Assembly (NCBI GenBank): GCA_041649155.1
Contig: JBAZNP010000001.1
Location: 3,581-67,580, forward strand
Source: Patescibacteria group bacterium
GTDB taxonomy: Bacteria > Patescibacteriota > UBA1384 > XYA2-FULL-43-10 > 1-14-0-10-43-13
Direction of reading: 5' to 3'
Length of the DNA stretch: 64,000 bases
A program made the position numbers and the translations under genes. The notes under the pieces were generated by a model, which was not told where the DNA came from, searched no databases, and saw only the letters and a list, made by a program, of their open reading frames with translations. This document shows, piece after piece, positions 5,520 through 63,504 of the stretch; the first letter of the stretch is position 1, and each line of letters starts with the position of its first letter.

Positions 5520-5527
5520 ATTCTCTC

Positions 5528-5562
5528 GTCATTCCGGACTTGATCCGGAATCTATATAAATA
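5528..5562 (+). repeat. Palindromic MITE-like element, family Q (gtcattccggacttgatccggaatctatataaata)
   Basis: Near-identical copy at 8520-8554, with a compensatory G:C versus A:T pair in the stem. It lies in the divergent RT/avd promoter region. Confidence 0.8.
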
Positions 5563-5579
5563 ATTATGAAGGACAACTC

Positions 5580-5927
5580 ATGCAAGAATTTGACATCCCG
5601 ATTTTTAAGAAAACTTATGATTTCTACAAAAATTTCCATTTACTTAGAGCTAAGATATCAAAGCAGGATCGTTACACTGTTTTTCAAAGGTGTGAAAATG
5701 TCATACTCGATTTGTTGGAAAGAATTTTAGAAGCAAGCCAATTAAGCAAGGCACAGAAACTGCCTGTGCTTGAAAAAGCCAGCTTAAAATTGAACTTTCT
5801 TAGAGTATTTTTGCGACTAATGAAAGATATAAAATCGATTGATCTAAAAATCTACGCTGGTTTTGAGCAGAATGTCGACGAAATCGGAAGAATGCTCGGC
5901 GGTTGGATTAAATCTACTAAAGAATAA
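5580..5927 (+). CDS. avd: DGR accessory variability determinant (Avd, four-helix-bundle protein)
   Basis: 115 aa. The C-terminus EIGRMLGGWIKSTKE matches the Bordetella phage bAvd C-terminus EVGRILGSWIARVNRK. LNFLRVFLRLMKDIK parallels LAMLRFWLRFLAGIQ. Confidence 0.85.
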   Translation: MQEFDIPIFKKTYDFYKNFHLLRAKISKQDRYTVFQRCENVILDLLERILEASQLSKAQKLPVLEKASLKLNFLRVFLRLMKDIKSIDLKIYAGFEQNVDEIGRMLGGWIKSTKE

Positions 5928-6033
5928 GTTCGCTTCGCTTCTTTTTACGCACTGATTTTTGACTAATATATCTTGTAATAAAAGAGGAAGCGCTCATTTT
6001 CACAAGCATTCCCTCTTCGCTCAGGAGAGACTT

Positions 6034-6166
6034 CGGGAGGAAGCCAGAGGCAGACCCATAGTTGTCGTTCGTATTGTCAACCCTGTTGGTGTCGAACTTG
6101 ACCTTGTCGTCGTTGAAGTTGAAGTACGGAGCCTTGTCGAACTCACCATCGGCCTCAGAATCTTTG
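6034..6166 (-). other. DGR template repeat (TR)
   Basis: 133 bp that align without gaps to 6609-6741. All 21 mismatches are T on the + strand here (A on the minus, coding strand) against C or A in the other copy. In frame it encodes N-rich AAC codons (NFNDDKVKFDTNRVDNTNDNY). Confidence 0.9.
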
Positions 6167-6469
6167 CTTTTGTCCATCTATATTCACTGGAAATTGAGCT
6201 TTACTTCCACTTAGCGCAGACTATATGCTCTCTTCCCTGTATTTCATTTGGCAGCAGCTCGATATGTATTCACCGAACATCCGCACCAGACAAAAACAAG
6301 CAGTATCTCCTCAACCAGGTGCACTCTTAGAAACCTTGGTCGCTAAGATTCTGACCTTTCTATTGATTTGAGATTTCGGCGGCAGCAATCCCTGCCTACC
6401 GGCAGGCAAGCGTAAACTACTACACATTAGCCTATTTTCATCGAAAGTATACACTAGCACAGCTTAATA

Positions 6470-6520
6470 TTGCAAAAAAAATGTAAAGAAAACAGGCTAT
6501 TCGTATGGTGGCGAATAGCC
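6470..6520 (-). terminator. Putative rho-independent terminator of the DGR target gene
   Basis: 9 bp stem ggctattcg/cgaatagcc with an 8 nt loop. On the minus strand it is followed by the U-rich run tgttttctttacattttttttg. Confidence 0.45.
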
Positions 6521-6532
6521 TGCGCGTAGCGA

Positions 6533-6545
6533 CCGCCTTCGGCGG
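6533..6545 (-). other. GC hairpin downstream of VR (candidate DGR homing hairpin)
   Basis: ccgcc ttc ggcgg lies 64 nt 3' of the VR/IMH end. DGRs commonly need a GC stem-loop in this position. Confidence 0.4.
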
Positions 6546-6602
6546 ACAGGATCAAGTGGCAAAGAGCCAAAAGATCCAAGGGATCTAAGAAACAAGGAAC
6601 AA

Positions 6603-7508
6603 CTACTGCGGGAGGAAGCCAGAGGCAGACCCACAGCTGCCGCTCGCAATGCCAACCCTGTCGGTGTCGAACCCGACCCTGACGCCGTCGAAGCCGAAGT
6701 ACGGAGCCTCGTCGAACCCACCAACGGCCCCAGAATCTTTGAACTCATCTCCTGCCATGTCAGCGTGGAGCTGCTCCCAGCGAATGAATCGCTCAGGGTG
6801 AGTCAGCATGATGGCGCCAAACGCGACGCTTCCGAGTCCGAACTCGTTGGTCACGAAGACCTCGCGAGCCCTTCGTACAGATCTGCCACGATGGCGCATG
6901 CCGAGCTGGGCAGCGATAATCAGAATATCGCCTTTCTGTGTCTCGGCGATCTTCTCAAGTGCTTGCGCGGTACGGGCGAGAAGCCTCAGTTGAGCCGGTG
7001 TAATCTGCCCATCACGATAGTTGTAGAACGATCGCATCTCTGCGATCTTGACATGGATGAGCTGGATTGCTCTGCAGTACTTCTCGTCCCGGTCAGTGAC
7101 CTCGGGGAAGTGCTTCAGCGCTATGGCCTCGACAGCGGGGACAGCGAACCATCCTTCTGCTCCCTTAGGGAGCTCGGGCAGGTTCTTCGCGTTCAGGAAC
7201 GCCTCAGTCGGGTCAAGTTCGAAGATCTTGGCGATTGCCGCGATCTGTTCCTCAATTGGCTTCGGTCCCTTATACTCCGGCGGGTAGACGTAGCTGGACG
7301 CCACTTCCTCGTTGGCGAACTGGTTAGTGGCAGAATGCTTCTCGATGGCTTTTCTTATGTCATCTTGAAGTGCGCCACCATTCTCGTTAAGACGCTGTGC
7401 TCGATCCTCGTCGAGCTGAGCCTGGTTGTAGACAGCCTCAAAGAGGCCAGTTGCGTGGAGACCTTTCGGGTCTCTGGACGTGATCAATGCTTTCTGCATC
7501 GTCATCAT
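6603..7508 (-). CDS. DGR variable target protein, with VR at the C-terminus; the ORF is open back to 7565 but an RBS supports a start at 7508
   Basis: ggagga RBS followed by ATGATGACGATG at 7508. The C-terminus is ...FDEAPYFGFDGVRVGFDTDRVGIASGSCGSASGFLPQ. The gene is conspicuously GC-rich compared with its neighbours. Confidence 0.8.
   Translation of the reverse strand: MMTMQKALITSRDPKGLHATGLFEAVYNQAQLDEDRAQRLNENGGALQDDIRKAIEKHSATNQFANEEVASSYVYPPEYKGPKPIEEQIAAIAKIFELDPTEAFLNAKNLPELPKGAEGWFAVPAVEAIALKHFPEVTDRDEKYCRAIQLIHVKIAEMRSFYNYRDGQITPAQLRLLARTAQALEKIAETQKGDILIIAAQLGMRHRGRSVRRAREVFVTNEFGLGSVAFGAIMLTHPERFIRWEQLHADMAGDEFKDSGAVGGFDEAPYFGFDGVRVGFDTDRVGIASGSCGSASGFLPQ
6609..6741 (-). other. 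DGR variable repeat (VR), including the IMH at its 3' end
   Basis: Counterpart of the TR. The 25 bp stretch cgggaggaagccagaggcagaccca (6609-6633) is identical in TR and contains no A on the coding strand, which is IMH-like. Confidence 0.9.
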
Positions 7509-7534
7509 CCTCCTTGTGTATAGGATTTGCCGTT

Positions 7535-7595
7535 CCTTGTGTGGAACAAGCACTCTATTGACCATATTTTGATCAACAAGGTGCTTGTTCCAAGG
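7535..7595. promoter_or_regulatory. Inverted repeat (ggaacaagcac ... gtgcttgttcc) in the promoter region of the DGR target gene; candidate operator
   Basis: 11 bp perfect arms (7543-7553 and 7581-7591) with ccttg/caagg extensions and a 27 nt spacer, 35-87 nt upstream of the start at 7508. Confidence 0.4.
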
Positions 7596-8519: not shown

Positions 8520-8586
8520 GTCATTCCAGACTTGATCTGGAATCTATATAAATAGTAGCTGGATCCCGTATCAAGTACGGGATGAC
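8520..8586 (+). repeat. Composite palindromic MITE-like element (modules Q and P, gtcat...atgac termini) in the rpmI-rplT intergenic spacer
   Basis: gtcattccagacttgatctggaatctatataaatagtagctggatcccgtatcaagtacgggatgac holds two hairpins whose loops, cttga and tcaag, are reverse complements. Confidence 0.8.
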
Positions 8587-9057: not shown

Positions 9058-9128
9058 GTCATCCCCGCGAAGACGGAGATCCACAAAAGAAAATACTATC
9101 AGTAGATTCCCGCCTTCGCGGGAATGAC
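9058..9128. repeat. MITE-like element, family D (gtcatccccgcgaag...cttcgcgggaatgac), with terminal inverted repeats
   Basis: Related copies at 10676-10733 and 39063-39170 share the agacgg(a/g)gatccac and agtagattccc segments. Confidence 0.75.
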
Positions 9129-9137
9129 AGTGATTGA

Positions 9138-10631: not shown

Positions 10632-10675
10632 TTTGTTTTCTTTTAAGAATAATATTTAGGATTTATGCATTTGAT

Positions 10676-10733
10676 GTCATCTCCGTGTAGACGGGGATCC
10701 ACTAATAGTAGATTCCCTTCTTCAAGGGAATGA
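10676..10733. repeat. MITE-like element, family D copy
   Basis: gtcatctccgtgtagacggggatccactaatagtagattcccttcttcaagggaatgac. Confidence 0.75.
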
Positions 10734-10866
10734 CAGTGGATGACTTGCAATTTGTAATTATCATCAGAGAGAATCGTTAATCTATCCCTAAATATTATAG
10801 CCTGTTATTGACCAATGTTGTCAAGGATTGCTAAAATATATTAAGAAGAAGTAAAAAAAGGATCAA

Positions 10867-12972: not shown

Positions 12973-15030
12973 ATGATTGCTGAAGTTATTCCAGAAAAAA
13001 GGACCGGTCCGGACAAGGATACTTTTTCATACCTTGTGCCTAACGAAATGCAAAGCCAAATCCAAATCGGCTTTATTGTTGATATTCCCTTTGGGAAAAA
13101 GAATATTAGGGGAGTGATAGCAAGTACACGGGATACAGACAACAGAATACAGATTGATTATGCATTAAAGAAAGTTCAGTCTATTAATTCAGAATTTGTG
13201 ATGCCGGAAAGCTATATTTCAATTGCTAAATGGATCTCAGAATATTATCTATGCTCTTTGGGCGAAGCAATTTCCCTATTTTTGCCACCGGCAATCTCGC
13301 ATTCACGAAAACAAGCATCAAGTATTAAGCATCAAGTATTAAGCAAAAGCATTCAGTTAACGAATGATCAGGAACAAATTTTTCAAAAACTTCTCCATAA
13401 ATTATCAACCATTAACCATAAACCTAGTTTAATTCATGGCGTTACCGGCAGCGGCAAAACCGAGATTTACTTGAAATTGGCTGCTGAAGCATTAAAAAAA
13501 GAAAAACAAGTTATTGTGCTTGTACCAGAAATAATGCTAACGCCCCAAACTATAGAAAAATTTGAAGAGATTTTTCCGGATCAAATTTGCCTAATGCATT
13601 CTAGACTTTCAAAGTCGCAACGTTATGCAACTTATAAACAATTTTATAGTGGTGAAAAACCAATAATAATCGGTCCCCGTTCTGCCTTGTTGGTGCCAAG
13701 TGAAAATATTGGATTAATAATAATTGATGAAGAACAGGAAGATGCTTACAAGCAGGAAAAAGATCCTCGCTATCATGCAGTTGATTTGGCTGAAAAAATC
13801 TCAGAAAAATTAAACGCTTTGCTTGTTTTAGGAACTGCCACACCAAGAGTTGAGACATACCACAAGGCTGTTAATTCCTCCCCTTTAGAAGGGGAGGCTA
13901 GGTGGGGTGGAGGTGAATTCAAACAGAATAGCAGCCTCACCCATCCTCTCCTTACTAAGGAGAGGAGCCATTATGACCTTTTTGAGCTCAATTCCCGATA
14001 TCAAAAATTAATCCTGCCACCCTCAACAGTGGTTGATTTGAAATATGAGATAAAACAGGATAATTTTTCACCAATTTCGCTGGAATTGCAAAAAAACATA
14101 GCTAGAGTGCTCAAGGACAAGCGTCACGCCATCTTGTTCCTAAACCGCCGCGGCATGGCTACTTTTGTATCATGTCGCGAATGCGGGGAAGTAATTAATT
14201 GCCCGCATTGTAACATTCCAATGGTTTATCATATAAATTATGACAAACATATTTTAAACTGCCATCATTGCGATTACAAAACTCCAGTACCGGCTATTTG
14301 CCCCGTCTGCAAAAGTCCAAAAATAAAATTTTTCGGTGCCGGTGTGGATAAAATTGAGAATGAAATTAAAAGGCTATTTCCAAAAGCCAGAATTAGAAAA
14401 ATCGATTCTAAAAGTCTGCAAAATAAAGATGAATATGTGAAATTGTATGAGGAATTAAAAAATGGCAAAATTGACATATTAATCGGGACTCAAATACTGG
14501 CAAAGGGGCTTAATATCGGAACTGTGGATTTAGTCGGCGTAATTTCCGCCGATGTTGGACTTCATATGCCCCATTTTCGCGCAAATGAAAAAACTTTTTC
14601 TCTCCTAACTCAGGTTTCCGGTAGAAGCGGACGAAAAGAAAATTCGGGCATGACAGTTATTCAAACCTACTGGCCCGACTCCAGTTCAATCAAATTTGCA
14701 GCACAGCACAACTATAAAGATTTTTATAAAAGCGAAATTTTGGAACGGAAAAAATTCAACTATCCCCCATTTTGCCATTTAATCAGGGTTGTTTCAGAAG
14801 ATAAGAACAAACAAAAAGCTAAATCAGAATTGGAGAAAATCGCAAAAGAATTAGAACAAAACAAAATAGACTTCATCGGCCCCGGCCCATGTTTTTTAAA
14901 TAGAATTAACAATAAATTCAGATATCACATAATCATCAAGACTAACACTTTGCCCAATCCTAAAATCAGAGAAATATTTAGAACAAACCCATATCTGGTC
15001 TGGGATGTCGATCCAATTGATTTGCTCTAA
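12973..15030 (+). CDS. priA: Primosomal protein N' (PriA helicase)
   Basis: Walker [12 protein letters not shown], a DEEQE box, the CxxC...CxxC zinc-binding region (CRECGEVINCPHC...CHHCDY...CPVC), and a helicase C domain. Confidence 0.9.
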   Translation: MIAEVIPEKRTGPDKDTFSYLVPNEMQSQIQIGFIVDIPFGKKNIRGVIASTRDTDNRIQIDYALKKVQSINSEFVMPESYISIAKWISEYYLCSLGEAISLFLPPAISHSRKQASSIKHQVLSKSIQLTNDQEQIFQKLLHKLSTINHKPSLIHGVTGSGKTEIYLKLAAEALKKEKQVIVLVPEIMLTPQTIEKFEEIFPDQICLMHSRLSKSQRYATYKQFYSGEKPIIIGPRSALLVPSENIGLIIIDEEQEDAYKQEKDPRYHAVDLAEKISEKLNALLVLGTATPRVETYHKAVNSSPLEGEARWGGGEFKQNSSLTHPLLTKERSHYDLFELNSRYQKLILPPSTVVDLKYEIKQDNFSPISLELQKNIARVLKDKRHAILFLNRRGMATFVSCRECGEVINCPHCNIPMVYHINYDKHILNCHHCDYKTPVPAICPVCKSPKIKFFGAGVDKIENEIKRLFPKARIRKIDSKSLQNKDEYVKLYEELKNGKIDILIGTQILAKGLNIGTVDLVGVISADVGLHMPHFRANEKTFSLLTQVSGRSGRKENSGMTVIQTYWPDSSSIKFAAQHNYKDFYKSEILERKKFNYPPFCHLIRVVSEDKNKQKAKSELEKIAKELEQNKIDFIGPGPCFLNRINNKFRYHIIIKTNTLPNPKIREIFRTNPYLVWDVDPIDLL
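13877..13965 (+). repeat. In-frame palindromic insertion within priA (two hairpin modules)
   Basis: cctcccctttagaaggggagg ... cctctccttactaaggagagg encodes SPLEGEARWGGGEFKQNSSLTHPLLTKERS, which interrupts the conserved PriA helicase region. Confidence 0.7.
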
Positions 15031-16300: not shown

Positions 16301-17638
16301 ATGATTTTAAAGATAAAAAAAACTAACGATCCAATATTGAGAGAGCCAGTTGAAAAAGTGGTTGATTTTGGTTTTGAATTTCAAAAGTTCATTGATGACA
16401 TGGTTGAGACAATGCACAAAAAAAACGGAGTTGGCTTAGCCGCCCCTCAGGTTGGAGAATCAAAAAACGTTTTCATATGCGGATTCGAAGGCGATAAAGA
16501 TAATGAAGACGAGAGAAAAATCAGTTTTCCATTAACCGTAATTTGCAACCCCAAGATAACCAATTTCAGCTCAAAAAAATGCAAAATGGTAGAAGGATGC
16601 CTTTCTTTCCCGGGAATGGAGTTAATAATCAACCGGCCGGAAGCAGTTACAATTCAGGGGCAAGATCGATATGGAAAGAATATTGAAATTAAAGCCGACG
16701 GTTTGTATGCAAGAGCGATACAGCATGAATATGACCATTTAAATTCAACTCTTTTAATTGACCGGTTGGAAGAAATTAAAATTATATTTATCGGCACAGG
16801 TACGCTTGGTGCCAAATCGCTTGAATTATTAGCAAAAGATCCTCAATATAAAATTTTGGCTGTTATAACAGGAAGCGAGAAAAAAGTTATAAGCCGAAAT
16901 AAAAGTGAAAAGAAAAATGTTATTCTTGAAATCGCTAAAAATAATAAGTTGAATGCAATAGTTACAGATAATATTAAAAATCCCGAAACTATAGAAAAAA
17001 TTAAGAAACTAAAGCCGGAATTAGGTGTGATGGCTGATTTTGGTCAGATTATCCCAAGAGAAGTTTTAGATATTCCCGAACACGGAGTCATCAACATTCA
17101 CCCATCACTTTTGCCAAAACATCGCGGCTCCTCCCCAATTCAACAAACAATTCTGGACGGCGACAAATTTACCGGCGTTTCGCTTATTCTGACATCGGAA
17201 AAAATGGATGCCGGCGACATTATTTCACAAACAAAAGTCGAATTATCAGGTGCTGAAACTAGCGGCATATTGAAAGACTATCTATCACAAATCGGCGCTT
17301 CCATGCTATTAAATTCAATTCCATACTACATGACAGGCGATTTAAAACCATTTCCCCAAAAAGAGGAAAAAGCAACTTATACAAAAATGATAAAGCCGGA
17401 AGACGGATATGTTGACGCCCAGACCAAAGCTGCAGTAGTAGAAAGAAAAGTCCGAGCCTTTGATCAATGGCCAAAAGTTTACACAAAAATCAAAAATAAA
17501 AGAGTGCAGATTACTTCATCTCATTTTGAAGAAGACGGCGTGTTTGTAATTGACAGGGTTAAGCCAGAAGGCAAAAAGGAGATGAATTATTCGGATTTTC
17601 AGAATGGTTACAAAACCGAGTTGACTTTTGACGCATAG
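16301..17638 (+). CDS. def-fmt: Bifunctional peptide deformylase / methionyl-tRNA formyltransferase (Def-Fmt fusion)
   Basis: Def motifs GVGLAAPQVG, EGCLSFPG and QHEYDHL are followed in one ORF by Fmt motifs IIFIGTGTLGAKSLELL and HPSLLPKHRGSSPIQ. Confidence 0.85.
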   Translation: MILKIKKTNDPILREPVEKVVDFGFEFQKFIDDMVETMHKKNGVGLAAPQVGESKNVFICGFEGDKDNEDERKISFPLTVICNPKITNFSSKKCKMVEGCLSFPGMELIINRPEAVTIQGQDRYGKNIEIKADGLYARAIQHEYDHLNSTLLIDRLEEIKIIFIGTGTLGAKSLELLAKDPQYKILAVITGSEKKVISRNKSEKKNVILEIAKNNKLNAIVTDNIKNPETIEKIKKLKPELGVMADFGQIIPREVLDIPEHGVINIHPSLLPKHRGSSPIQQTILDGDKFTGVSLILTSEKMDAGDIISQTKVELSGAETSGILKDYLSQIGASMLLNSIPYYMTGDLKPFPQKEEKATYTKMIKPEDGYVDAQTKAAVVERKVRAFDQWPKVYTKIKNKRVQITSSHFEEDGVFVIDRVKPEGKKEMNYSDFQNGYKTELTFDA

Positions 17639-17639
17639 C

Positions 17640-17681
17640 GTCATCCTGAGCGAAGCCGATAATCGGCTGAGTCGAAGGATC
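17640..17681 (+). repeat. Palindromic element, family B (gtcatcctgagcgaagccgataatcggctgagtcgaaggatc)
   Basis: Starts immediately after the def-fmt stop. Related partial copies at 28905-28927 and 29396-29420. Confidence 0.7.
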
Positions 17682-25683: not shown

Positions 25684-27750
25684 ATGCAAAAGGTACAATT
25701 TAAAATTCATTCGCGTTACTCTCCGACCGGCGACCAACCGGAAGCTATTTTAAAATTATCTGAAAATATTAAGAAAAAAGTTAAACATCAAACCCTCTGG
25801 GGAGTGACCGGAAGCGGCAAAACTTTTACTATTGCCAATGTTATAGAAAAAACTCAAAAGCCGACCCTTGTCATTGCCCATAATAAAACTCTGGCTGCTC
25901 AGCTTGCTGATGAATTCAGACAATTCTTTCCAGAAAATGCAGTTCATTATTTTGTTTCATATTATGACTATTACCAACCAGAAGCATATATTCCTCATTC
26001 CGACACTTATATCGAAAAAGATTCTTCTATAAATGATGAAATTGATCGCCTCCGACATGCCGCGACTCATGCTCTTCTAACTAGAAGCGATGTCATCATT
26101 GTAGCTTCGGTCTCTTGTATTTATGGTATAGGTTCGCCTGAATTTTACAGAGCGGAAAATTTTACATTCAAGGTCGGGGAGAAAATTGAAAGAGATTATT
26201 TTTTGCACCAGTTAAATAATCTGCAGTTCAACCGCAATGACATCGAATTAAAAAGAGGCACGTATCGCCTTCATGGAGATACTTTGGAAATTTTTCCCGC
26301 TTACGAGACAAACACTGTAAAGGTAGAATTTTTTGGAGATAGTGTTGAAAAAATTATTGAAACTGACTGGATAACCGGCAAACAGGTAAAACAGCTTGAA
26401 TCGTTTGAAGTATTTCCGGCGAAGCACTTTATTACACCAGAAAACTTACAAAAAGAAGCAATAAAAAACATCAAGAAAGATCTTGAAGTTAGGGTAAATA
26501 GCCTAAAAAAGGCAGACAAATTGCTTGAAACCCAAAGGATCGAGCAGAGAACAAACTTTGACTTGGAAATGATTGAACAAACTGGATCTTGCTCCGGCAT
26601 TGAAAATTATTCAAGATATTTTGACGGACGAAAGCCAGGCATTCCGCCGACAACCCTTATTGATTATTTCCCTGACGATTTTTTAATGGTGATTGATGAA
26701 TCACACATAACTGTTCCACAAATCGGCGCCATGTATGCAGGAGACCGGTCAAGAAAAGAAAAACTTGTTGATTACGGTTTCAGACTTCCATCCGCTTTTG
26801 ACAATAGGCCATTTAGATTTGATGAATTTTACCACAAAATAAATCAGGTAATTTTCACGTCAGCAACCCCAAATGATTTTGAGTTAAGAAAAAGCTCTAG
26901 TGAGAATGTCATTTCGACCCATCCCGAGCCCACCGCTGGGTGGATCGAGGGAGGCGAGAAATCCCATCGCAATGCCGATAAACCTCAACCATATGATGGA
27001 GTTGTGAAACAATTCATAAGACCAACAGGCCTTCTTGATCCAAAGATTGAAATTAAAAAAACCAAAGGTCAAATAAATGATTTGATTGAAGAAATTAATA
27101 AAAAAGTAGTCAAAAATCAAAGGGTGCTAGTTACAACTCTCACTAAAAAAATGGCTGAAGCCCTGACAGATCATTTATTAGATCACAAAATTAAAGTGGC
27201 CTATATTCACTCTGACGTCGAGACGCTTGAACGTACTGAAATTTTGCACTCTTTGCGCTTGGGCGAATATGACGTTTTAATCGGAATCAATCTGCTTCGA
27301 GAAGGTCTTGATTTGCCAGAAGTTTCACTTGTTGCCATACTAGATGCTGATAAAGAAGGCTTTTTGCGAAGCAGAACCTCCCTGATCCAAACCATCGGTC
27401 GGGCAGCACGACATGTTGAAGGCAGAGTCATTATGTATGCCGATGTCATGACAGAATCGATGAAAATTGCAATTAACGAAACAAATATCAGAAGAGAAAT
27501 GCAAGAAAAATATAATAAAGATCACAACATCACGCCCAAAAGCACAGTGAGAAAACTTGAGCCCAAAGAAATTAAGGAAGAAAAAGAACAGCTTGAGATT
27601 GATCTGTCATTTAAAAAACTTCCAAAATCAGAAAAGAAAAGTGTTATTTCTGAGTTAAATATTCAGATGAAAAAAGCAGCGCAGCAGTTAGAGTTTGAAC
27701 ATGCTGCCCGCCTAAGAGATCAGATCACAAAACTTGAGAGTATGATATAA
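25684..27750 (+). CDS. uvrB: Excinuclease ABC subunit B
   Basis: [15 protein letters not shown] Walker A, helicase motifs and a UvrB/UvrC interaction C-terminus. It carries a ~25 aa insertion from a palindromic element. Confidence 0.9.
26908..26968 (+). repeat. In-frame palindromic element, family C, inside uvrB
   Basis: gtcatttcgacccatcccgagcccaccgctgggtggatcgagggaggcgagaaatcccatc encodes [21 protein letters not shown] second copy at 29706-29767 differs only by 5 transitions. Confidence 0.8.
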
Positions 27751-27902
27751 TCAGTCAGAATCAAGAAGTTTGAATAAAGAATTATGGGCCCGTCTAGTTA
27801 AGTTTCAAATCAAAAATATCCATGATTCATAATTCATGATTCAAGATTCTAATTTAGATAATTGATTTTTATGCCGTTTTAGTGTAAAGTAATGAGGTAA
27901 TT

Positions 27903-28217
27903 ATGAACCATTTAGAATTGTATAATCTTTTAAAAACAGTTCAAAAAAACGTTCGTTGTCCGCAATGCGGTAAGGAATATGATTTTCCAAATATTAAAAT
28001 CAGAGGAATTGCAGAGTTTATTGTTTTCCTAGAGCTAAATTGCGGAAATCACATGCCCCTAATTGCAACTGTAGCGCTGACAAAGAAGATTGATAAGGAA
28101 GAAAAAATAAGACCATCAGGAAAGATAAGCTCCAACGATATAATCGAAACTTATAATTTCTTAAAGGACTTTTCCGGTGGATTTGATAAGATATTTCAAG
28201 ATAATAAACTAAAATAA
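27903..28217 (+). CDS. Hypothetical small zinc-ribbon protein
   Basis: CPQCGKEY ... LNCGNH cysteine pairs. No recognisable family. Confidence 0.3.
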   Translation: MNHLELYNLLKTVQKNVRCPQCGKEYDFPNIKIRGIAEFIVFLELNCGNHMPLIATVALTKKIDKEEKIRPSGKISSNDIIETYNFLKDFSGGFDKIFQDNKLK

Positions 28218-28227
28218 TGGAAAAAAG

Positions 28228-28905
28228 ATGACAGATTTCAAATTAGACGCAAAATTAAGACAAGATGCCCCCAACAAAACCAGAAATGAAGGTTTTGTAC
28301 CGGCAATTGTGTATGGAAAAGGTTTTGACAACATTCAAATTGCTTTGGAAAAAATTAGCTTCATGAAGCTTTTCAAAGAAGCTGGAACTTCAAACCTTAT
28401 TGATTTAGTAATCGATGGCGGTAAAAGCGTTAAAACTCTGATCAACGACATACAGCTTGATCCTATTAAGTCAGATATTATTCATGTTGATTTTTACAAA
28501 GTGAACATGAAAGAAAAAATTCACGCAGAAGTCCCATTGAAATTTGTTGGCGACTCTATTGCTGTCATCGACAAAGAAGGATCTTTAATCACCAGCAAAG
28601 ATTCAATTGAAGTTGAATGTTTGCCTGCTGATCTTATTCCTGAACTTGAAGTCGACATTTCTGTCTTGGATGACTTTGAGAAAAATATTAAGATTTCAGA
28701 TCTTAAGTTGCCAGAAGGAATTGAAATTCAAGATGATCCAGAAGAGATTATCGCTCACGTTGAAGAACCTAGAAGCGAACAGGAACTAGAAGAACTTGAA
28801 ACCGAAGTTGTTGAAGATGTTTCAGCTATTGAAGTTGAAAATAAGGGCGAAGAAACTCCTGCTGAGGGCGAAGGCGAAAAAGCAGAAGAAAAATCCGCTG
28901 AATAG
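28228..28905 (+). CDS. rplY: 50S ribosomal protein L25 / general stress protein Ctc, with an acidic tail
   Basis: N-terminal L25 fold sequence ...RNEGFVPAIVYGKG... and a beta-barrel C-domain. Confidence 0.8.
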   Translation: MTDFKLDAKLRQDAPNKTRNEGFVPAIVYGKGFDNIQIALEKISFMKLFKEAGTSNLIDLVIDGGKSVKTLINDIQLDPIKSDIIHVDFYKVNMKEKIHAEVPLKFVGDSIAVIDKEGSLITSKDSIEVECLPADLIPELEVDISVLDDFEKNIKISDLKLPEGIEIQDDPEEIIAHVEEPRSEQELEELETEVVEDVSAIEVENKGEETPAEGEGEKAEEKSAE

Positions 28906-29085
28906 TCCTGAGCAAAGTCGAAGGAAGTAAATTCATTTATATCAAGCGATATATAATTCAAAAATGCCCCAAAGGGGCGTTTTTGAAATCTGATCTGAAA
29001 ATTGATAAATTAATAATTAAATGAAAATTGTCCCAACGATAAATATCGGGATCCCGATCGAAGCATCGGGAAAAATTCTAATTAT

Positions 29086-30246
29086 ATGAAGTACTTTGTT
29101 AAAGTCTATGGCTGCCAATATAACGAATGGGATGCAGCCAGAATAAGCTACATGTTAAAAAGCATCGGCTTGATTGAATCGTCCGAAAAGGATGCCGATA
29201 TTATTTTTGCATTGTCTTGCTCAGTTCGCAAAAGTGCTGTTGACCGCATAATGGGAATGGTCAAAAATTGGCAAGGCAAAAAGGTCGTCATTACAGGCTG
29301 CGTTCTTCCAAATGATAAACCAAAATATTTAAAAAAGAACGTCATTCTTTGGGATAATAAAAAGCCGGAAGATTTGAAAGATATTCTCCCACACTGTCAT
29401 TCTGAGCAAAGCGAAGAATCTCAAGATCATTCAGCTACGCCTCAAGATGACAAAATTAGCAAACTATTAAACAGCGGCAATTCCTCCTCCGCCTATCTCC
29501 CAATAATGATAGGCTGCAATAATTTTTGCTCTTATTGCGCCGTCCCATACACCAGAGGACGCGAAGAATCCAGACCCTTTAATGAAATCATGAGTGATTT
29601 CAAAAAAATGGTTGAAAAGGGATACAAAGAAATAATGCTCTTAGGCCAAAACGTAAATAGCTACAGAATTCAGAACGCAGATAACAGAATACAGCAAAAC
29701 AAAGCTGTCATTTCGACCCATTCCGAGCCCACCGTTGGGTGGATTGAGGAAGGCGAGAAATCCCATCACGATAAGTCTGGCTTTGCCATACTACTAGAAA
29801 CCTTAGATAAAATCCCAGGTGATTTCATGATTTCATTTACTTCAAACCATCCAAAAGATATGACTGATGACATTATTACTGCAGTTAAAAATTTACCAAA
29901 AGTGAAGAAAGAAATTCACCTGCCGCTTCAATCCGGAAGCAATGAAGTTTTAAAAGCAATGAACCGACCCTATACCATAGAGAAATATTTAGAACTAATC
30001 GAAAAAATAAAGAAAGAAATTCCGACTGTTTCGATTACAACCGACATTATTGTTGGTTTTCCGAACGAAACGGAAGAAAATTTTCGAAAAACCGTGGAAA
30101 TATTCAAAAGAATCAACTTCAAATCTGCCTACATAAATAAGTACTCTCCCCGTTCCGGAACAGCCGCCTTCAAACTCGGCGACCCAATCCTTTGGACAGA
30201 AAAACAACGTCGCTGGAAAATATTGAATGATATTGCGAATAAATAA
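29086..30246 (+). CDS. MiaB/RimO-family radical-SAM methylthiotransferase (no obvious TRAM domain)
   Basis: MTTase N-domain and the radical SAM CNNFCSYCAVPYTRGRE (CxxxCxxC). It contains two in-frame palindromic-element insertions. Confidence 0.7.
   Translation: MKYFVKVYGCQYNEWDAARISYMLKSIGLIESSEKDADIIFALSCSVRKSAVDRIMGMVKNWQGKKVVITGCVLPNDKPKYLKKNVILWDNKKPEDLKDILPHCHSEQSEESQDHSATPQDDKISKLLNSGNSSSAYLPIMIGCNNFCSYCAVPYTRGREESRPFNEIMSDFKKMVEKGYKEIMLLGQNVNSYRIQNADNRIQQNKAVISTHSEPTVGWIEEGEKSHHDKSGFAILLETLDKIPGDFMISFTSNHPKDMTDDIITAVKNLPKVKKEIHLPLQSGSNEVLKAMNRPYTIEKYLELIEKIKKEIPTVSITTDIIVGFPNETEENFRKTVEIFKRINFKSAYINKYSPRSGTAAFKLGDPILWTEKQRRWKILNDIANK
29396..29420 (+). repeat. In-frame small palindromic element (gtcattctgagcaaagcgaagaatc) inside the miaB-like gene
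   Basis: Encodes the HCHSEQSEES insertion. Same family as the element at 17640. Confidence 0.65.
29706..29767 (+). repeat. In-frame palindromic element, family C, inside the miaB-like gene
   Basis: gtcatttcgacccattccgagcccaccgttgggtggattgaggaaggcgagaaatcccatc encodes VISTHSEPTVGWIEEGEKSH, in the same frame as the uvrB copy. Confidence 0.8.
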
Positions 30247-30285
30247 TATTTGCAATTAATATTAGAGATTAATGTAATTAAAAAG

Positions 30286-30325
30286 ATGTGATAATTTTTG
30301 CGCGGCCACGATATTTTTATCACAT
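30286..30325. repeat. 40 bp palindromic repeat, copy 1 (atgtgataatttttgcgcggccacgatatttttatcacat)
   Basis: Identical to 30978-31017. It has 9 bp inverted arms atgtgataa/ttatcacat. It overlaps the last codons of the Cas2-like gene. Confidence 0.9.
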
Positions 30326-30946
30326 CAAATCTTTTAATGATAAAACATTTTTATTTAAAAAGTGGTCGATTATCTTATCTTCCCCCATTGCTATGTCTAC
30401 TATTAAGTAAGATAAATATTCTTTTGAACAAGTGAAGAAACAAAGCGCATCGATTTCTTTTTTGCAATCAAACGGGTAGACAAAAACGCTCTCCTGAATT
30501 TTTTCAAAGCCCATTTCTTCAAGTTTTCTTCTAATTATATCTCTTGTCGTTTTTTTCTTCTCTGGCACATCAAATATTACTAAACGAAATTTTTTATCCC
30601 AAATCTTTGGGCGATGTTTCGGCAATTCGCCAAGCTTATGCCACACTATTTTTTTAAATCCCTTATCGGTTAACTCAGCAAACTTTTCATTATTTTTCAA
30701 AAAAGTTTTGATTAATCCCTGTTTTTCTAAGTAATATATATGATTTCTAAAATCGCTAGAGGCATTCATCCTTTTGGCATATTCCTGAACGCTTACCGAT
30801 TGATATGGATTCTTTTCTAGATCGATCAAAAAGTTTTCAACTCCTTCAAATAAACAAACGAATATCTCTTTTGCTGATTGTTTTATTCTTTGCTTAATAC
30901 CCTTCTTTTTTTCAGAGTCTTTTTTTGACTCATTTTCACTCATCAC
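30320..30946 (-). CDS. wHTH (PaaX-like N-domain) fused to a Cas2-like/VapD-fold C-terminal domain; putative regulator
   Basis: RLVIFDVPEKKKTTRDIIRRKLEEMGFEKIQESVFVYPFD matches the Cas2 core (LVxxDVxxxxxxRxxxxxxLxxxGxxxQxSVFxxxxD). The N-terminal YYLEKQGLIK region looks like a winged helix. Confidence 0.55.
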   Translation of the reverse strand: MMSENESKKDSEKKKGIKQRIKQSAKEIFVCLFEGVENFLIDLEKNPYQSVSVQEYAKRMNASSDFRNHIYYLEKQGLIKTFLKNNEKFAELTDKGFKKIVWHKLGELPKHRPKIWDKKFRLVIFDVPEKKKTTRDIIRRKLEEMGFEKIQESVFVYPFDCKKEIDALCFFTCSKEYLSYLIVDIAMGEDKIIDHFLNKNVLSLKDLM

Positions 30947-30977
30947 CCCCCCTTTTTTTTATTTATTATAAAGTAAT

Positions 30978-31017
30978 ATGTGATAATTTTTGCGCGGCCA
31001 CGATATTTTTATCACAT
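30978..31017. repeat. 40 bp palindromic repeat, copy 2, about 30 bp upstream of the Cas2-like gene start
   Basis: Perfect 40/40 identity with copy 1. Candidate operator or recombination site. Confidence 0.9.
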
Positions 31018-34080: not shown

Positions 34081-34335
34081 TTACCCTGTGAAATACGATT
34101 TGAGTCGATTTCGCAAGAATTGTTTACCTCTAAAACTTTTTAAATATTTTTCTCTATGTGTTGCGTCTTTTTGACAAACGCAAGCTTCATAATATATTAA
34201 TTTCAATGGCCTACGATCTTTAGTTGAATCAACCAACCCATTCTCATGTTTCTCAAATCGTAATTTTAAATTTTTCGTATAACCTGTATACATTTTACCA
34301 TCATTTTGCGAATGTAGGATATAGACATAAAACAT
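34081..34335 (-). CDS. GIY-YIG nuclease superfamily protein (standalone, 84 aa)
   Basis: FYVYILHSQNDGKMYTGYTKNLKLRFEKH is a GIY-YIG motif. Confidence 0.7.
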   Translation of the reverse strand: MFYVYILHSQNDGKMYTGYTKNLKLRFEKHENGLVDSTKDRRPLKLIYYEACVCQKDATHREKYLKSFRGKQFLRNRLKSYFTG

Positions 34336-34382
34336 GACTTTTATCTAATTTAATAAAAATTTAAAATATTTCACAGGGTGAA

Positions 34383-34440
34383 CAAAAAAAGACCGTTTGT
34401 TTCGAGATCCCGATGCAACATCGGGAGGTTCCATCTCGAT
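34383..34440 (-). terminator. Rho-independent terminator downstream of coaE on the minus strand
   Basis: Hairpin tcgagat(gg)aacctcccgatgttgcatcgggatctcga followed on the minus strand by aaacaaacggtcttttttt. The preceding ~120 nt are GC-rich and structured. Confidence 0.55.
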
Positions 34441-34560
34441 TTGGTCTTAATTTACTCGTTCGCTCGAGTCTGCGCTGGTTCTCCGGGGCGGTACTCCCAT
34501 CGACAAATCAGATATTATGTTTTTATATTACCATTTTTAAAATTAATGTAAATATGCGGA

Positions 34561-37703: not shown

Positions 37704-37788
37704 GTCATCCCAGACTGCAATCTTGAGATCTGGGATCCAGAAATTTTTACTACGAACTTCCTAGATTCCAGATCAAGTCTGGAATGAC
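37704..37788. repeat. Composite palindromic MITE-like element (modules P and Q), intergenic copy
   Basis: gtcatcccagactgcaatcttgagatctgggatccag...attccagatcaagtctggaatgac. Inverted relative to 8520. An inverted, diverged copy is inserted in rsmH. Confidence 0.8.
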
Positions 37789-37808: not shown

Positions 37809-38900
37809 TTACCACCTTAGAGTTTGGTCTGCTTGATCAAGATGTTGCTGCTCGGTGTCAATGTTTAATTTTGATGTGACAATATTATAAATCTCTTTTT
37901 CAATATCCCCGATTTCTTTTTCGCCGTCAATAATAACGAAACGATTACTTTCATCTTTTGCTAAAAGTTCATAAGTCGCTAAAGTTTTTTCTAATTTTTT
38001 CTCTTCCTCAAAAAGTTCAAAACCATCTCGGGACTTTCCTATGCGATCAATGCAAACTTCCGGCGGAACTTTAATAAAAAAAGTAATATCGGGCAAAATA
38101 AAATGCTTGTTAATTTCTCTTAGCCATTCTATATCAGCGCCAATTGAACCGAAAGCAATACTAGAAAAAAGGTAGCGGTCAGTAATTACAACATCCCCTT
38201 TATCTAAATTTGGGATGATGGTATGCTTTAAATGATGTGATCGATCGGCAGCATACAAAAGTTGGAATCCTTCTGCTGGAATCGTCCATTCTTTTGTTAA
38301 AACCCCTCGAATCAATCCACCAATCAGATTATTGGTTGGTTCTTTAGTTGTAGAAACTGTCAGGCCATTCCCCCGTAGATTTTTTGCTAATAAATCCACC
38401 TGGGTTGTGCTACCAGATCCGTCAAGACCTTCGAACGCAATAAATAAGCCTTTTTGACTACATTCCTTGGCTGTATGCTTTTTTCCAGTAGAGCCAAATC
38501 CGTTCATACCACGATCCGAAGCTGATAATTCTTCAACTATTTGAATATTTGGATGCTCGATCTTTTGAACTAACAGTTGAGCTACCTTGTCTCCCTTTTC
38601 TATTATATAATCCTCTTGACCAAGATTAAGAAGACTAACATGATATTCTCCTCGATAACCTGCGTCCATTACGCCGCCCATGGTTTTAATTGAATGTTTT
38701 GTTGCTAATCCGCTTTTGTCCCATATTAAAGCTACATGATCATCAGGAATTTCTATAGCCAGTCCAGTTTTAATACTGAGAACTTCGTTTGGTTTTAGTA
38801 CACAATTTTCGATACTAAACAAATCCATTCCCGCATCATTATGATGTGCAAATTCTGGAACAATTGCGTCAGGATGTAATTTTTTAACTTTTAAGTCCAT
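37809..38900 (-). CDS. dut-tmk: Bifunctional dUTP diphosphatase / thymidylate kinase (Dut-Tmk fusion)
   Basis: Dut motifs DAGMDL, GVMDAGYRGEY and RGMNGFGSTGK. Tmk P-loop FEGLDGSGSTTQ and a lid region. One continuous 363 aa ORF. Confidence 0.8.
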   Translation of the reverse strand: MDLKVKKLHPDAIVPEFAHHNDAGMDLFSIENCVLKPNEVLSIKTGLAIEIPDDHVALIWDKSGLATKHSIKTMGGVMDAGYRGEYHVSLLNLGQEDYIIEKGDKVAQLLVQKIEHPNIQIVEELSASDRGMNGFGSTGKKHTAKECSQKGLFIAFEGLDGSGSTTQVDLLAKNLRGNGLTVSTTKEPTNNLIGGLIRGVLTKEWTIPAEGFQLLYAADRSHHLKHTIIPNLDKGDVVITDRYLFSSIAFGSIGADIEWLREINKHFILPDITFFIKVPPEVCIDRIGKSRDGFELFEEEKKLEKTLATYELLAKDESNRFVIIDGEKEIGDIEKEIYNIVTSKLNIDTEQQHLDQADQTLRW

Positions 38901-42025: not shown

Positions 42026-45000
42026 TCATTTAAAAATACCCATTATCCAGCTAAGGGATTTTTGTAATGAGTCAACGATAATATCAATTACAGAACTTTG
42101 TGTTTTACCTGTAATGGTAGTTGTGTCATCGGAATATCCAGCATTACCAGCATTATCTTTTGAAATAGCTCTTAGATGATAAATTTTATTTGATTCTAGC
42201 TCCGAAACAATTACAACGTGAGAAGTTGAAAGCACTGCATCTTCTTTACTTTTGTTTTTGTATTCGCTGCCCGATATACCTTGTTCATATTCTACCTGTG
42301 AAGTACCTGGCTCATCCGTTTCCCAAGTCACCACCACTTGCGCTTTCTGAGATGTGCCAAAACCAGAAGATTTGACTTCAATGGTCATGTTAGATATTTT
42401 TGGAGAACGAGAGTCTTTTGGCGTATCAATACTTGTTGTAAATGGAGTCTCTATTTCATTTCCATACTTATCCCTGCCTGTTACTATAAATTTATAGGTA
42501 CTCATGTCAGCCAAATCTGGAATTATGAGGTCATGGTTAATAGTATAATCAGCGGATGAACGTGATAGTTTTTGGCCAGAAGATGATTCGTAGTTTATAA
42601 TCGTTGTCGTCTCTACATTTGTTTCCCAAGAAAATCTGTAGGTTGTAGTTGGAGCAGTAGTATCCTGATCTGACCGGACTCCATTTGTTATAGCTGGCAT
42701 TGTCAAAGTATTAAAATCATTTTTAGCGCCAAAATCCATTTTATTACCATCTACATCAGAGCCAAGAATATAGTAATAATATTTTGAAGAATGATCTAAT
42801 CCCGATAAATTAATAGTATGGTTTTGAATATATCCAGTTTCAACTTCTTCCACCTTCCCTGCTCCTTTATCAATTTCGTCCTTATCTTTGCTGTAAACAA
42901 TAGAGGTAGTTGTTGGAATTGAGGTTGTATAACTGATTGTTGCAGAATTTAAAGATATATTATCCACAGGAGCAACAGAAACAATAGGTCTTGCCAATGT
43001 ACGAAAACTCATTTTTTCACTTCGACCCTCGTTTCCATTTTCATCAACCCAAACTGCTTGATAGTAATATAGCGCCCCGCCAGGCTGCAACCCAGTGATC
43101 GTTACGCTATGTTGATCAGTCAAACTCAATTGACCCTTGGTTTCACCGCCATTTTCCTGTCCAATTTTATTTGGATCGGTTCCGTATTCAACAAAGCTAG
43201 AAGCTTTATGAACAACTTTTGGATCGACATCTGTTGTTTCCCAAGAAATCGTGGCGGAATAAGCCTTTTCAACTACATCTAGCTTTTCATTTTTTATAAT
43301 AGGCGCATTACTAAATTTGCCAGTTGGCACTATTTGAACTGTACTAGAAGCAACAGATGTTTGACCGGCATTGTCCTCAGATTCAACATTATAGAAATAT
43401 GCTTGCGAAGAAAGACTTGTATCAGCAAAAGTCGTGCTAGTGGTAGTTCCTGCTTGACTAAAATTTATTCCATCAGTCGACCTATAAACGTTGTAGCCCA
43501 TAAATCCGGCACCTTTATCTTGAGGCTCACTCCATGTTAGAAACACTTTATAACTGGCGAGATCACGATTTGAACCATCAACTGCAGAAACTGCCGTCGG
43601 CGTACCCGGAGCCGGAGTAATCGCCCAAAAAGACGCTGAAGCATAAATATCGTAATTTATATTTCCAGCTTCATCTTTAGCAACGACATATATTGTATTT
43701 TGTCCTTGACGTGTTGCATAGGAATCGGCAGCAAGTGATAGTGTTGTCGACAATGTAATATTTGTAGAGTTGGGAGTCTCGTTTATACTGTAATAATATT
43801 TCAATGCCGATTCGTTTCCAGAAAAAGTTGCTGGCTTGGACCACGAAAAAGAAAAATTATTCGATGCTGACGGATTCTGTTCTGACGATTCAGGGGAAGC
43901 GGTTAAATTTTGCGGAGCCGATGGCGCAGAATCATTATGATAAAAAGTGGCTTGAACGGGGCTGCTTTCATTGCCGGCGTTATCGATAGTTTTTAAGTAA
44001 AATATATTTGACCCTTCTTGATACCAGGCGCCATTTAAAGTTACTTGGAGTTCGGTTGTTATGTTTGACCAATTAGCATAATCTCCCCCGCCAGTTTTAT
44101 ATTTATAACCGCTTAAGCCAGAACCAGCATCAGAACCAGCCGGCCACAAGAAAGTGTAATCATTTACCGAAGAGTATCCAGATGGGGAAGATGAAACATA
44201 CGAAGGATTAGTCGGCAAGGTGTTTTCGTATTGGTATTTAAATGCCTTGCTTGAAACTGTCGGATCCCAAATCGTGCTATTGCCAAAGTTATCTTTTATT
44301 TTAACTCTCAAATAATATGTCGATCCTGAAACCAAAGCTCCAGCTACGGTTGCATTTGGCGATTCGGTCCAATAAACTGACCCGTCAGCATTTAGAACAC
44401 CGGAAGTTTCTTCTGGATCAGCAGTATTACTCGTACCAAAATAAACATAATAACCATCTATCCCGTTAGTATCGCTATCACCGCTCCATGAAAAATATGG
44501 ATTGGCGTGATTATGCCAATGATCTTCATTCGAAATAATTTCATCTCCTCCAGAAGCAGACAAAGAAGTTAAATTTGTGGGAGAACTGGGATTTACTAAA
44601 TCACTGGAAACATCAAAAATCTTTAACTTGTCAATCAAACCGCTAAATGTATCAAAACCTCCGCCCGGTACGGAACCAACATAAAAATCATCACCATAAT
44701 TTGGGGCCGGTGCAGACCAACTTGTTGTAGTGCTAGTAGTCACACCATCAACAGTTAATGACAATTCTCCGGTTGATTGCTTGTAACTAGCAGAAATAGA
44801 ATGCCAGCTATCGCGAGTCCAATCAAGAGTCGCGCTTTCTAAATATGTAGAATTATTCGGGGTGCTTGAGTTATATGAAGGATAAAATCTAACTTTTCCT
44901 CTAAACGGATCGATCTCTAACCTTAAACTGTTTGTCGAATTGCTTGACTGTAAAAGAACTTGGGATGGAGGAGTTCCATCATATGTTTCCCAAAAGGAAT

Positions 45001-62405: not shown

Positions 62406-62443
62406 TAGAAAAAAAATGAATTTTATGCTAAGATTATTAATCA

Positions 62444-63504
62444 TGAAACATATCCCCGTTTTAAAAAATGAAGTTTTGGAAGCGTTCAGCTATCTTAAAG
62501 ACGTCAAGAATAGCTTTTTTGTTGATGGTACGCTCGGATTAGCAGGCCACAGCTTGGCCATAGCCGAACAATTTAAAATTCAAAAAATAAAATTTAAAAT
62601 TATGGGTATCGATAAAGATAAAACTGCTTTGAGGTTAGCAAAAGAAAATATTGAAAATACAGGCTTTATAAATAATTTTTTATTTGTGCATGATGATTTT
62701 AAAAATATCGAAGAAATTTTAAAAAACTTGCGTCATTCCAGACCTGATCTGGAATCCAGAAATACCACAGGCAAACCAACTTCCTGGATCCCGGATCTCA
62801 AGCTTACAGTCCGTGATGATGAGTCTGATAATGGTAGCTTGATGATCAACGGAGCGCTAATTGATCTTGGTGTCTCATCGATGCAATTAGACGACAAAAA
62901 AAGAGGGTTTTCTTTTTCCGATCCAGAGGCAGCTTTGGACATGAGAATGGATCAAACTCAGGAGTTAAGTGCTTTTGATGTTTTAAATTACTATCCGCAA
63001 CTAAAACTGGAAAAAATATTCAAAGAATATGGAGAAGAAAAATTTTATAAAAATATCGCAAAAAATATTTGTAAAGACAGAAAGATCAAACCAATTGAAA
63101 AGGTCGGTGAACTCTTGGACATCTTAGAAATATCGATCCCAACCAAAATAAGAAAAACCAGTAAAAAACATTTTGCAACCGGAACTTTCAGAGCATTGCG
63201 GCTTGAGGTCAATCAGGAATTAACAAAACTTGATACGACACTTATGAATTTTATAAATGCTCTCAAAAAAGGTTCAAGGTTAGCTGTTATATCTTTTCAC
63301 TCAACTGAAGATAGAATCGTAAAGGAAACCTTTAGAAAAGCTGAAAATCCATGTGTCTGTCCTCCCTTAGCTCCAGTTTGCACATGTGAAAATGTTTCTG
63401 CCGTCAAGATAATAACCAAAAAGCCGATTATTCCGTCAGATCAGGAAATAGCAGAAAATCCTCGTTCTAGAAGCGCTAAATTAAGAATAATTGAAAAACT
63501 ATAA
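62444..63504 (+). CDS. rsmH: 16S rRNA (cytosine1402-N4)-methyltransferase RsmH (ORF open from 62368)
   Basis: MKHIPVLKNEVLEAF, DGTLGLAGHS, DLGVSSMQLDD and a C-terminal RsmH domain. It contains a ~30 aa in-frame palindromic-element insertion. Confidence 0.85.
62732..62820 (+). repeat. In-frame composite palindromic element (modules Q and P) inside rsmH
   Basis: gtcattccagacctgatctggaatccag...ggatcccggatctcaagcttacagtccgtgatgat is the inverted homolog of 37704-37788. It encodes HSRPDLESRNTTGKPTSWIPDLKLTVRDD. Confidence 0.75.

Follow-up and report, generated by a model that had tools for sequence, protein, structure and literature searches.

The combined analyses of 64,000 nucleotides from a Patescibacteria group bacterium (GenBank assembly GCA_041649155.1, contig JBAZNP010000001.1, positions 3,581 to 67,580 of the forward strand; the whole stretch is referred to here as the window) indicate that a repeat of about 60 nt, inserted in frame into uvrB and into a gene for a MiaB/RimO-family radical SAM methylthiotransferase (MTTase), is probably a small non-coding hairpin element that hits genes in tolerant loops. 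It would be a member or a descendant of the GTC-tagged palindromic repeats, which include the CGTC-tagged repetitive extragenic palindromic (REP) sequences, the Neisseria NTS, and the Ssn-related motifs. The element is a new repeat family within a known kind: the in-frame presence of such repeats in uvrB and in translation-related genes has already been published, and we found no earlier report of such repeats in Patescibacteria in the literature.

A repeat search followed by alignment recovered the element as a two-copy direct repeat (26907-26973 and 29706-29772) with 91% identity over 67 nt. This agrees with the initial annotation of the sequence, which had reported the same element of about 60 nt in both genes; over the 61-nt span that it delimited, the copies differ at 5 transitions. 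Both copies are on the + strand and are translated in one common reading frame, also as described there. A 28-nt core pattern, allowing up to 3 mismatches, matches the window at these two sites only, with 0 matches expected from shuffles, and the local G+C content at the copies is 0.55-0.63 compared to 0.37 for the window (36.6%). Copy 1 (26907..26971, +; TGTCATTTCGACC...GGCGAGAAATCCCATCGCA) lies in frame in uvrB, where it encodes (V) plus 20 residues and gives a net insertion of exactly 60 nt relative to empty orthologues; its score is 92.2 bits with R1, a covariance model built solely from copies of the element. Copy 2 (29706..29770, +; 86.7 bits) lies in frame in the MTTase gene and encodes VISTHSEPTVGWIEEGEKSHH, the reading across it being VISTHSEPTVGWIEEGEKSH. 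At this second site the element is present as proposed, but the insertion is composite, since the net 108 nt consist of the element plus 42 nt from another small repeat. This filler (29650..29705, +; RIQNADNRIQQNKA) is in frame directly 5' of copy 2 and is made from the repeat CAGAAT(T/A)CAG...GATAACAG, which also occurs on the related contig L001, in the spacer downstream of uvrB. On another related contig, L002, the net MTTase insertion is 78 nt, with just 12 nt at the position of the filler.

The host genes are a complete uvrB (25684..27750, +; 688 aa, intact; NCBIfam NF003673, 1017 bits) and an MTTase gene (29086..30246, +; 386 aa; TIGR00089, 344 bits) that lacks a TRAM domain and holds two separate in-frame repeat insertions. 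The TRAM domain is missing at the C terminus throughout the MTTase of the clade (120 orthologues; 312-442 aa among those listed). In structure-based comparisons, UvrB residues 405-438 stand opposite one residue of the solved structure 9gy7_E and MTTase residues 201-229 opposite one residue of MiaB 7mjz, both alignments being otherwise collinear, and both copies thus show as insertions. Residues invariant across the orthologue alignments are kept in both window proteins, as follows by construction. The UvrB insert is part of the linker that precedes the second RecA-like domain and falls between the helix 398-404 and the strand 440-443. An AlphaFold2 model of this protein (66 sequences) has a mean predicted local distance difference test (pLDDT) score of 83, and values below 50 are confined to residues 413-431, a coil. 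The MTTase model (68 sequences; mean pLDDT 86) falls below 50 at residues 208-225, a coil between the strand 182-186 and the helix 232-241; the only other such segment is the Cys-rich cluster loop at 147-152. Both inserts are thus modeled with pLDDT below 50 in predicted disordered, tolerant loops: the inter-domain linker of UvrB and, in the MTTase, the loop that follows the β-strand LLGQN. Most likely, translation of the insert yields a disordered loop, acidic and rich in Pro and Gly, that would have no function of its own.

Gene order from uvrB to the MTTase gene is conserved on related contigs, and orthologue alignments demonstrate that the inserts are lineage-specific. Both sites are empty in L001, the closest relative found (uvrB 87% identical in DNA), and in L003 and L004 (77% identical), and R1 detected no copy on any of these three contigs. 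L002, whose uvrB is 82% identical, carries the element at both sites. The copies of the window differ from those of L002 mostly by nonsynonymous changes, which often compensate one another in the stem; this argues that the structure of the nucleic acid is conserved and not the peptide. Because relatives are empty at these sites, and other Patescibacteria carry near-identical copies between genes and within at least 5 further housekeeping genes, the sequence is an inserted repeat and not native protein, as originally proposed. We rejected an assembly artefact, since independent assemblies show the same filled sites. Sliding-window identity revealed that the window resembles L001 over most of uvrB and MTTase, the L002-like exceptions being two patches around the elements (26854-27033 and 29519-29833) and one intergenic segment. 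Within the patches, 21 informative sites group the window with L002 and 8 with L001, compared to 56 and 151, respectively, outside them. The simplest reading of these alignments is that filled alleles may have been exchanged by homologous recombination on short tracts and not created twice. We consider independent transposition into identical sites of the window and L002 less probable than a transfer of alleles, given that the sequence directly beside the inserts is L002-like, too. Downstream of uvrB, a 114-nt intergenic segment (27752-27865) is 97% identical to L002; its counterpart in L001 is a different palindromic segment, it is missing in L003, and no other copy was seen among the sequences compared.

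Scanning GTDB genomes and JGI metagenomes by pattern yielded, with the window included, 25 distinct copies, all on Patescibacteria-like contigs; 16 lie outside genes and 9 are in frame within genes. Alignment of the copies revealed an imperfect three-tier hairpin that covers 53 nt, with a compound stem of 6+2+6+5 pairs (about 19 bp) interrupted by bulges and a 4-nt loop. Over the alignment, 95.2% of the cells are paired, compared to 82% in shuffles and 26-52% with slid partners. Eight stem pairs change on both sides (column 19/48, for example, is C-G, U-A, or G-C), the covariation score was reached by none of 500 shuffles, and RNAalifold independently found the same inner and middle stems. Every copy starts with T-GTC-ATTTC and ends with GAAAT-C-C, leaving an unpaired TGTC 5' of the palindrome and a C directly 3' of it, an invariance that is partly by construction because the search pattern fixed these bases; relatives found with R1 and in protein surveys likewise keep the tag and the 3' C. 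No Rfam family matches the element.

The nine in-frame copies share a single reading, VISTH..EP..G..E.GEKSH. Besides UvrB and the MTTase, which the DNA pattern search recovered as hosts in both the window and L002, these copies lie in MiaA (L017), ATP synthase delta (L019), IleRS between the catalytic and anticodon-binding domains (L024), TrmD (L026), and an NrdG-like radical SAM activase (L027, also protein P0121). P0121 was the one match of a six-frame peptide concatenate against the protein database, in a search whose word index is ill-suited to 20-residue queries. We dropped the rule that the element is always read in the same frame, given exceptions on three contigs, all of which have dimers with family members: L039 has a member read as SFRPIASPPLGG in another frame, at another MTTase site (the domain linker), and L032 and L034 carry short relatives on the reverse strand inside UvrB. 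The subfamily with CCCGAG/CCCACC stems has 9 of its 12 copies within genes. Conservation of the core can exceed that of the host: the MTTase of L037 is 63% identical to that of the window, yet its element core agrees with the uvrB copy of the window at 59 of 59 positions, and the same holds for the copies between genes in L009 and L012. A further subfamily, with the inner stem CCAGGC/GCCTGG, is intergenic only (L007, L014, L021, L022, L025, L029, and L031). Its flanks are conserved past the hairpin (...AAAAATGAsgrgT upstream and CCTACCATACATGCAATAATG downstream), and therefore this subfamily is a longer unit.

The element is accompanied in the window by many short hairpins of the form GTCAT(T/C)YY...RRATC, found as single units and as head-to-head dimers, and about one third of the GTC-tagged loci of the window are intragenic. 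The second in-frame repeat of the MTTase gene (29396..29451, +) is a GTC-tagged head-to-head dimer from another family (GTCATTCTGAGCAAAGCGAAGAATC...GATGAC) that encodes CHSEQSEESQDHSATPQDD and is common to L001. It occupies the linker that connects the N-terminal domain to the radical SAM domain; it is a weak match to R1 (20.6 bits) and has pLDDT values of 56-60 around residues 101-120. This linker is a second hotspot, with CHSEQSEES-type dimers in many orthologues. Another in-frame dimer (62732..62819, +) interrupts rsmH (62368-63504) and encodes RHSRPDLESRNTTGKPTSWIPDLKLTVRDD, placing about 30 extra residues directly before the conserved DLGVSS motif. Outside genes, head-to-head dimers of short GTC-tagged hairpins occur between infC and rplT (8520..8586), at 9058..9128, between lgt and lepB (10676..10734), and between glyA and dut-tmk (37704..37788), and single hairpins lie at 5528..5552 (+; CGTC-tagged, cGTCATTCCGGACTTGATCCGGAATC) and directly 3' of def-fmt (17640..17680, +; a weak match to R1). 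The published Ssn-related-motif pattern, HGTCWYN(0-2)YYVSBRHN(0-5)WNVSBRGN(0-2)RNCYNB, matches the window three times, with 0.17 matches expected, at 10675(+), 9129(-), and 8587(-). These matches are the left unit of the lgt/lepB dimer and the right units of the dimers at 9058 and 8520, and the one at 9129(-), TGTCATTCCCGCGAAGGCGGGAATC, is almost the core of the Neisseria NTS.

The two host sites are hotspots, which may reflect selection for permissive loops, a target preference, or turnover at repeats already there. About 16 of the 60 best UvrB matches have extra residues at the insert site, and 4 hold other GTC-tagged single units or dimers at the DNA level. Extra residues directly after GQNVNSY are present in 68 of 121 MTTase sequences, at least 7 of them with full VISTH-type inserts, and the same point also holds shorter relatives and other families, such as VIPAKAGIQ, VILNGSEES, and VIPHLMRD.

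A candidate for the protein that handles these repeats is encoded at 34081..34335 (-), an 84-aa single-domain GIY-YIG protein (Pfam PF01541, E 1.5e-15) that may be a distant Ssn-type nuclease for single-stranded DNA (ssDNA). In Neisseria, the 94-aa GIY-YIG nuclease SsnA binds its repeat as ssDNA only, not as RNA, and cuts a few nucleotides upstream; its gene is flanked by NTS (CGTCATTCCCGCGMAVGCGGGAATCYRG) and Ssn-related motifs, and mutagenesis showed the critical positions to be the three bases that precede the palindrome on its 5' side and the C that directly follows it (Chenal et al. 2025, PMC11893778). We took as reference the orthologue on the N. gonorrhoeae chromosome (94 aa, with Y6, Y17, and E64 as in PMC11893778), whose gene has 10 NTS copies within 400 nt. 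The window protein is 35% identical to this SsnA over 66 residues, with the catalytic residues aligned, and searches of PDB and NCBIfam gave no SsnA-specific match for it. At the same place in the gene order, L002 encodes a different protein of 96 aa (14028-14318) that is 42% identical to SsnA over 89 residues (E 7e-29), and inverted ATTTCGAC...GAGAAATC hairpins lie on both flanks of its gene, scoring 26.4 and 22.1 bits with R1. Since L002 thereby shows the NTS-ssnA-NTS layout with the element's own class of hairpin, an Ssn protein is most likely the partner of the element, judging from this gene context. In this slot, which thrS and a CoaE-like gene delimit, the window and L001 have the identical 84-aa protein and L002 has another GIY-YIG gene; that close relatives have different GIY-YIG genes in the same place suggests that the nuclease gene is itself mobile or replaceable. 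Upstream of the window gene lie about 190 nt of G+C-rich sequence (34336-34560, -) that contain no open reading frame (ORF), end in a T-run, have no match in Rfam, and may be an undescribed small RNA.

Together, these results suggest that the conserved features of the element (the compound stem of about 19 bp, the unpaired 5' TGTC, and the C after the palindrome) would act at the level of DNA. Intragenic copies would survive only where neither their length nor their frame closes the ORF and where the approximately 20 added residues land in a tolerant loop, and filled alleles would then move between genomes of these lineages on short homologous-recombination tracts. The repeat and its insertions, the covariation of the hairpin, the hallmarks of the family, the position in loops, and the mosaic flanks are observed; an Ssn protein as partner, a translated and neutral insert, and the way in which new copies arise are what we infer. 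Several observations weigh against this interpretation. Neither copy (26907, 29706) matches the Ssn-related-motif pattern, because the loop of the element holds two further stems. The GIY-YIG gene of the window has no flanking repeats and is only distantly SsnA-like, no experiment ties any Ssn protein to the element or to repeat insertion, and what has been demonstrated in Neisseria is cleavage and an effect on transformation, not mobility (PMC11893778). No target-site duplication is visible on comparing filled and empty sites of uvrB or MTTase, and copies are few, with only 2 within the 64 kb and 1-2 per contig elsewhere. The identity of the core over 59 nt, despite only 63% identity of the host proteins, could point to a function of the sequence. 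The split of informative sites between the patches and elsewhere gave p = 3e-6 by Fisher's test with patch limits picked post hoc. Low pLDDT at the inserts is partly expected because few aligned sequences carry them; both inserts nonetheless fall between regular secondary-structure elements. Single copies fold with energies no better than those of shuffles (z -0.1 to -1.3), and the claim of a hairpin consequently rests on covariation. The initial description of the element as palindromic is therefore true of the family, as the 25 copies covary, but is not obvious from a single copy, where the symmetry is imperfect and folding energy lends no support.

The small size, inverted symmetry, and several copies of the element, and its frequent head-to-head dimers bounded by TGTCAT...ATGACA, are features also expected of a classical miniature inverted-repeat transposable element, that is, an insertion sequence that has been shortened by deletion, has terminal inverted repeats, and depends on a DDE transposase acting in trans, which duplicates the target site. 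This origin appears very improbable, as no filled/empty pair shows a duplication, the single unit is asymmetric with its 5' GTC tag and 3' C, and covariation extends through the whole stem instead of the termini alone. Moreover, no transposase was detected in Pfam scans of about 50 window ORFs, on which our negative statements about transposases are based, in a window that covers 8% of the genome; the sole reverse transcriptase belongs to a diversity-generating retroelement. A REP/REPIN sequence mobilized via single-stranded hairpin intermediates by a RAYT (an IS200/IS605-type Y1 HUH transposase) would share with the element a hairpin with a conserved unpaired 5' tag, common REPIN-like inverted dimers, and the lack of target duplication. 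We leave this route a small chance, given that the tag reads GTC(AT) and not GTAG, that the same ORFs include no Y1_Tnp domain, that the gene found flanked by this class of hairpin is a GIY-YIG gene, and that CGTC repeats are listed as having no associated transposase genes (PMC3733652, Table 1).

Two further explanations place the function elsewhere than in DNA. If the peptide of about 20 residues were a functional protein module that is under selection in its own right and has been copied from gene to gene, with the DNA repeat as its by-product, this would fit the very good conservation of the sequence, the mostly intragenic CCCGAG/CCCACC subfamily (9/12), and the one frame shared by the nine in-frame copies of the DNA pattern search, which yields an acidic PEST-like loop. 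The identical copies in intergenic DNA (L009, L012) make such selection highly improbable, as do the mostly nonsynonymous substitutions that restore base pairs, the other frame of the L039 member, the reverse-strand orientation of the short relatives in L032 and L034, the close relatives that lack the insert, and the disorder predicted by the models. To a structured RNA, regulatory or removed from the transcript and hence untranslated, we give next to no credence. Its stems covary and include some G-U pairs, but every intragenic copy keeps the frame with a length divisible by three, which an excised RNA need not do, Rfam contains no match, and 60 nt is too short for any self-splicing intron known to us. 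SsnA, in addition, binds ssDNA and not RNA (PMC11893778).

Starting from the recurrent use of the same sites, a wider proposal is that loops of essential Patescibacteria genes (in UvrB after E-N-V/I, and in the MTTase after GQNVNSY and in the domain linker) serve as long-lived landing pads with a repeated turnover of GTC-tagged hairpins by replacement, loss, and renewed gain. Divergent lineages would exchange a near-invariant master sequence through a homing-like spread; for example, an Ssn protein might, during natural transformation, nick ssDNA next to a repeat that is already in place, which would stimulate short gene-conversion tracts. Such a process would explain the 59/59-nt identity, the different families at identical sites, and the mosaic patches centered on the inserts. 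Nevertheless, we hold both the process and the assignment of these particular sites as landing pads to be doubtful.

Read as a non-coding hairpin repeat of the GTC-tagged kind, the element adds the Candidate Phyla Radiation (CPR) to Rickettsia and the few other bacteria with protein-coding palindromes; in the compact genomes of the CPR, a large share of such repeats lies inside essential genes. It also ties the behavior of Rickettsia palindromic elements (RPEs) to the recently described Ssn nuclease/repeat system, giving a concrete candidate for the partner protein. For annotation, peptides of the VISTH type or such as CHSEQSEES in CPR proteins mark repeat insertions and not domain features, and the recurrent use of the same loops maps, by natural means, the sites at which UvrB and MiaB-family enzymes permit insertions.

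The window holds several other features. A diversity-generating retroelement at 4443-7565 comprises a reverse transcriptase (4443-5519, -), bAvd (5580-5927, +), a template repeat (6030-6166), and a variable repeat (6605-6741) at the 3' end of the ORF 6603-7565 (-), and all 21 template/variable mismatches are at template adenines. An ORF of 208 aa with a PaaX_M/Cas2-like domain (30320-30946, -) lies between 43-nt direct repeats (30283-30325 and 30975-31017) that are 98% identical. This ORF is not at the syntenic position in L001, L002, and L003, and for this reason the segment 30283-31017 looks like an inserted cassette. Tandem 198-nt repeats (45902-46795; at least 4 units, 67-87% identical) are found inside an ORF of 1804 aa (42026-47440, -). 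Two genes are fusions, one of peptide deformylase with methionyl-tRNA formyltransferase (16301-17638) and one of dUTPase with thymidylate kinase (37809-38900).

Among known systems, the REP/REPIN-RAYT systems, reportedly described by Bertels and Rainey in 2011 and Nunvar et al. in 2010, resemble the element in forming inverted dimers and hairpins whose conserved tag is unpaired, and in being thought to act as ssDNA. Unlike the element, whose tag is GTC, they have a GTAG tag and a Y1 transposase as partner, neither of which was found in the window. The CGTC-tagged REP superfamily has been defined by Di Nocera et al. (2013, PMC3733652) as having stems of 8-9 bp, loops of 4-5 nt, and a 3-bp tail; it is reported in five phyla, Patescibacteria not among them. 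The element resembles these REPs in its unpaired tag, short 3' tail, head-to-head dimers, some intragenic units, and lack of association with a transposase, and its family is likewise multicopy and mostly intergenic, with common dimers and occasional in-frame units. It departs from them, and this adds to the points against membership given above, in a tag that is TGTC and not CGTC in 25 of 25 copies and in a stem far longer than 8-9 bp, the whole hairpin spanning 53 nt. Other hairpins of the window do read CGTC (5528, 62732), and short hairpins elsewhere in it do fit the stem and loop dimensions of the superfamily. Similarity to the NTS and Ssn-related motifs lies in the layout of HGTC, palindrome, and C, and in the SsnA homologue of L002, flanked on both sides by hairpins of the class of the element in the manner of NTS-ssnA-NTS. 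The families differ in location, 9 of the 25 copies of the element family being intragenic compared to about 2% of NTS copies in N. meningitidis (PMC11893778).

The likeness in behavior that had been proposed for the element was to RPEs; it is closer than was proposed, and this reading is supported by the shared GTC tag, the place of RPE-4 and RPE-6 in the CGTC REP superfamily, and the precedent of R. conorii uvrB. RPEs were reportedly described by Ogata et al. in 2000 and 2002. Unlike these repeats of Alphaproteobacteria, the element occurs in Patescibacteria and is a bulged three-tier hairpin of about 19 bp, and the similarity seen is that of the tag only, the RPE consensus not having been compared. 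In R. conorii, RPE sequences end in CGTC, the intragenic units correspond to RPE-4/RPE-6, and CGTC-tagged repeats lie inside uvrB, uvrA, polymerase, and tRNA synthetase genes, being in frame in uvrB and the synthetase genes (PMC3733652). Like RPE-4 and RPE-6, the element is a small palindrome found both between genes and in frame in housekeeping genes with the ORF preserved; its hosts, too, include uvrB and translation-related genes, and one end carries an unpaired tag containing GTC. The inserts of both encode about 20-30 residues that are thought to sit in loops, and the element shows the behavior that characterizes RPEs, being in frame in unrelated conserved genes, absent from orthologues, and at positions compatible with the fold.

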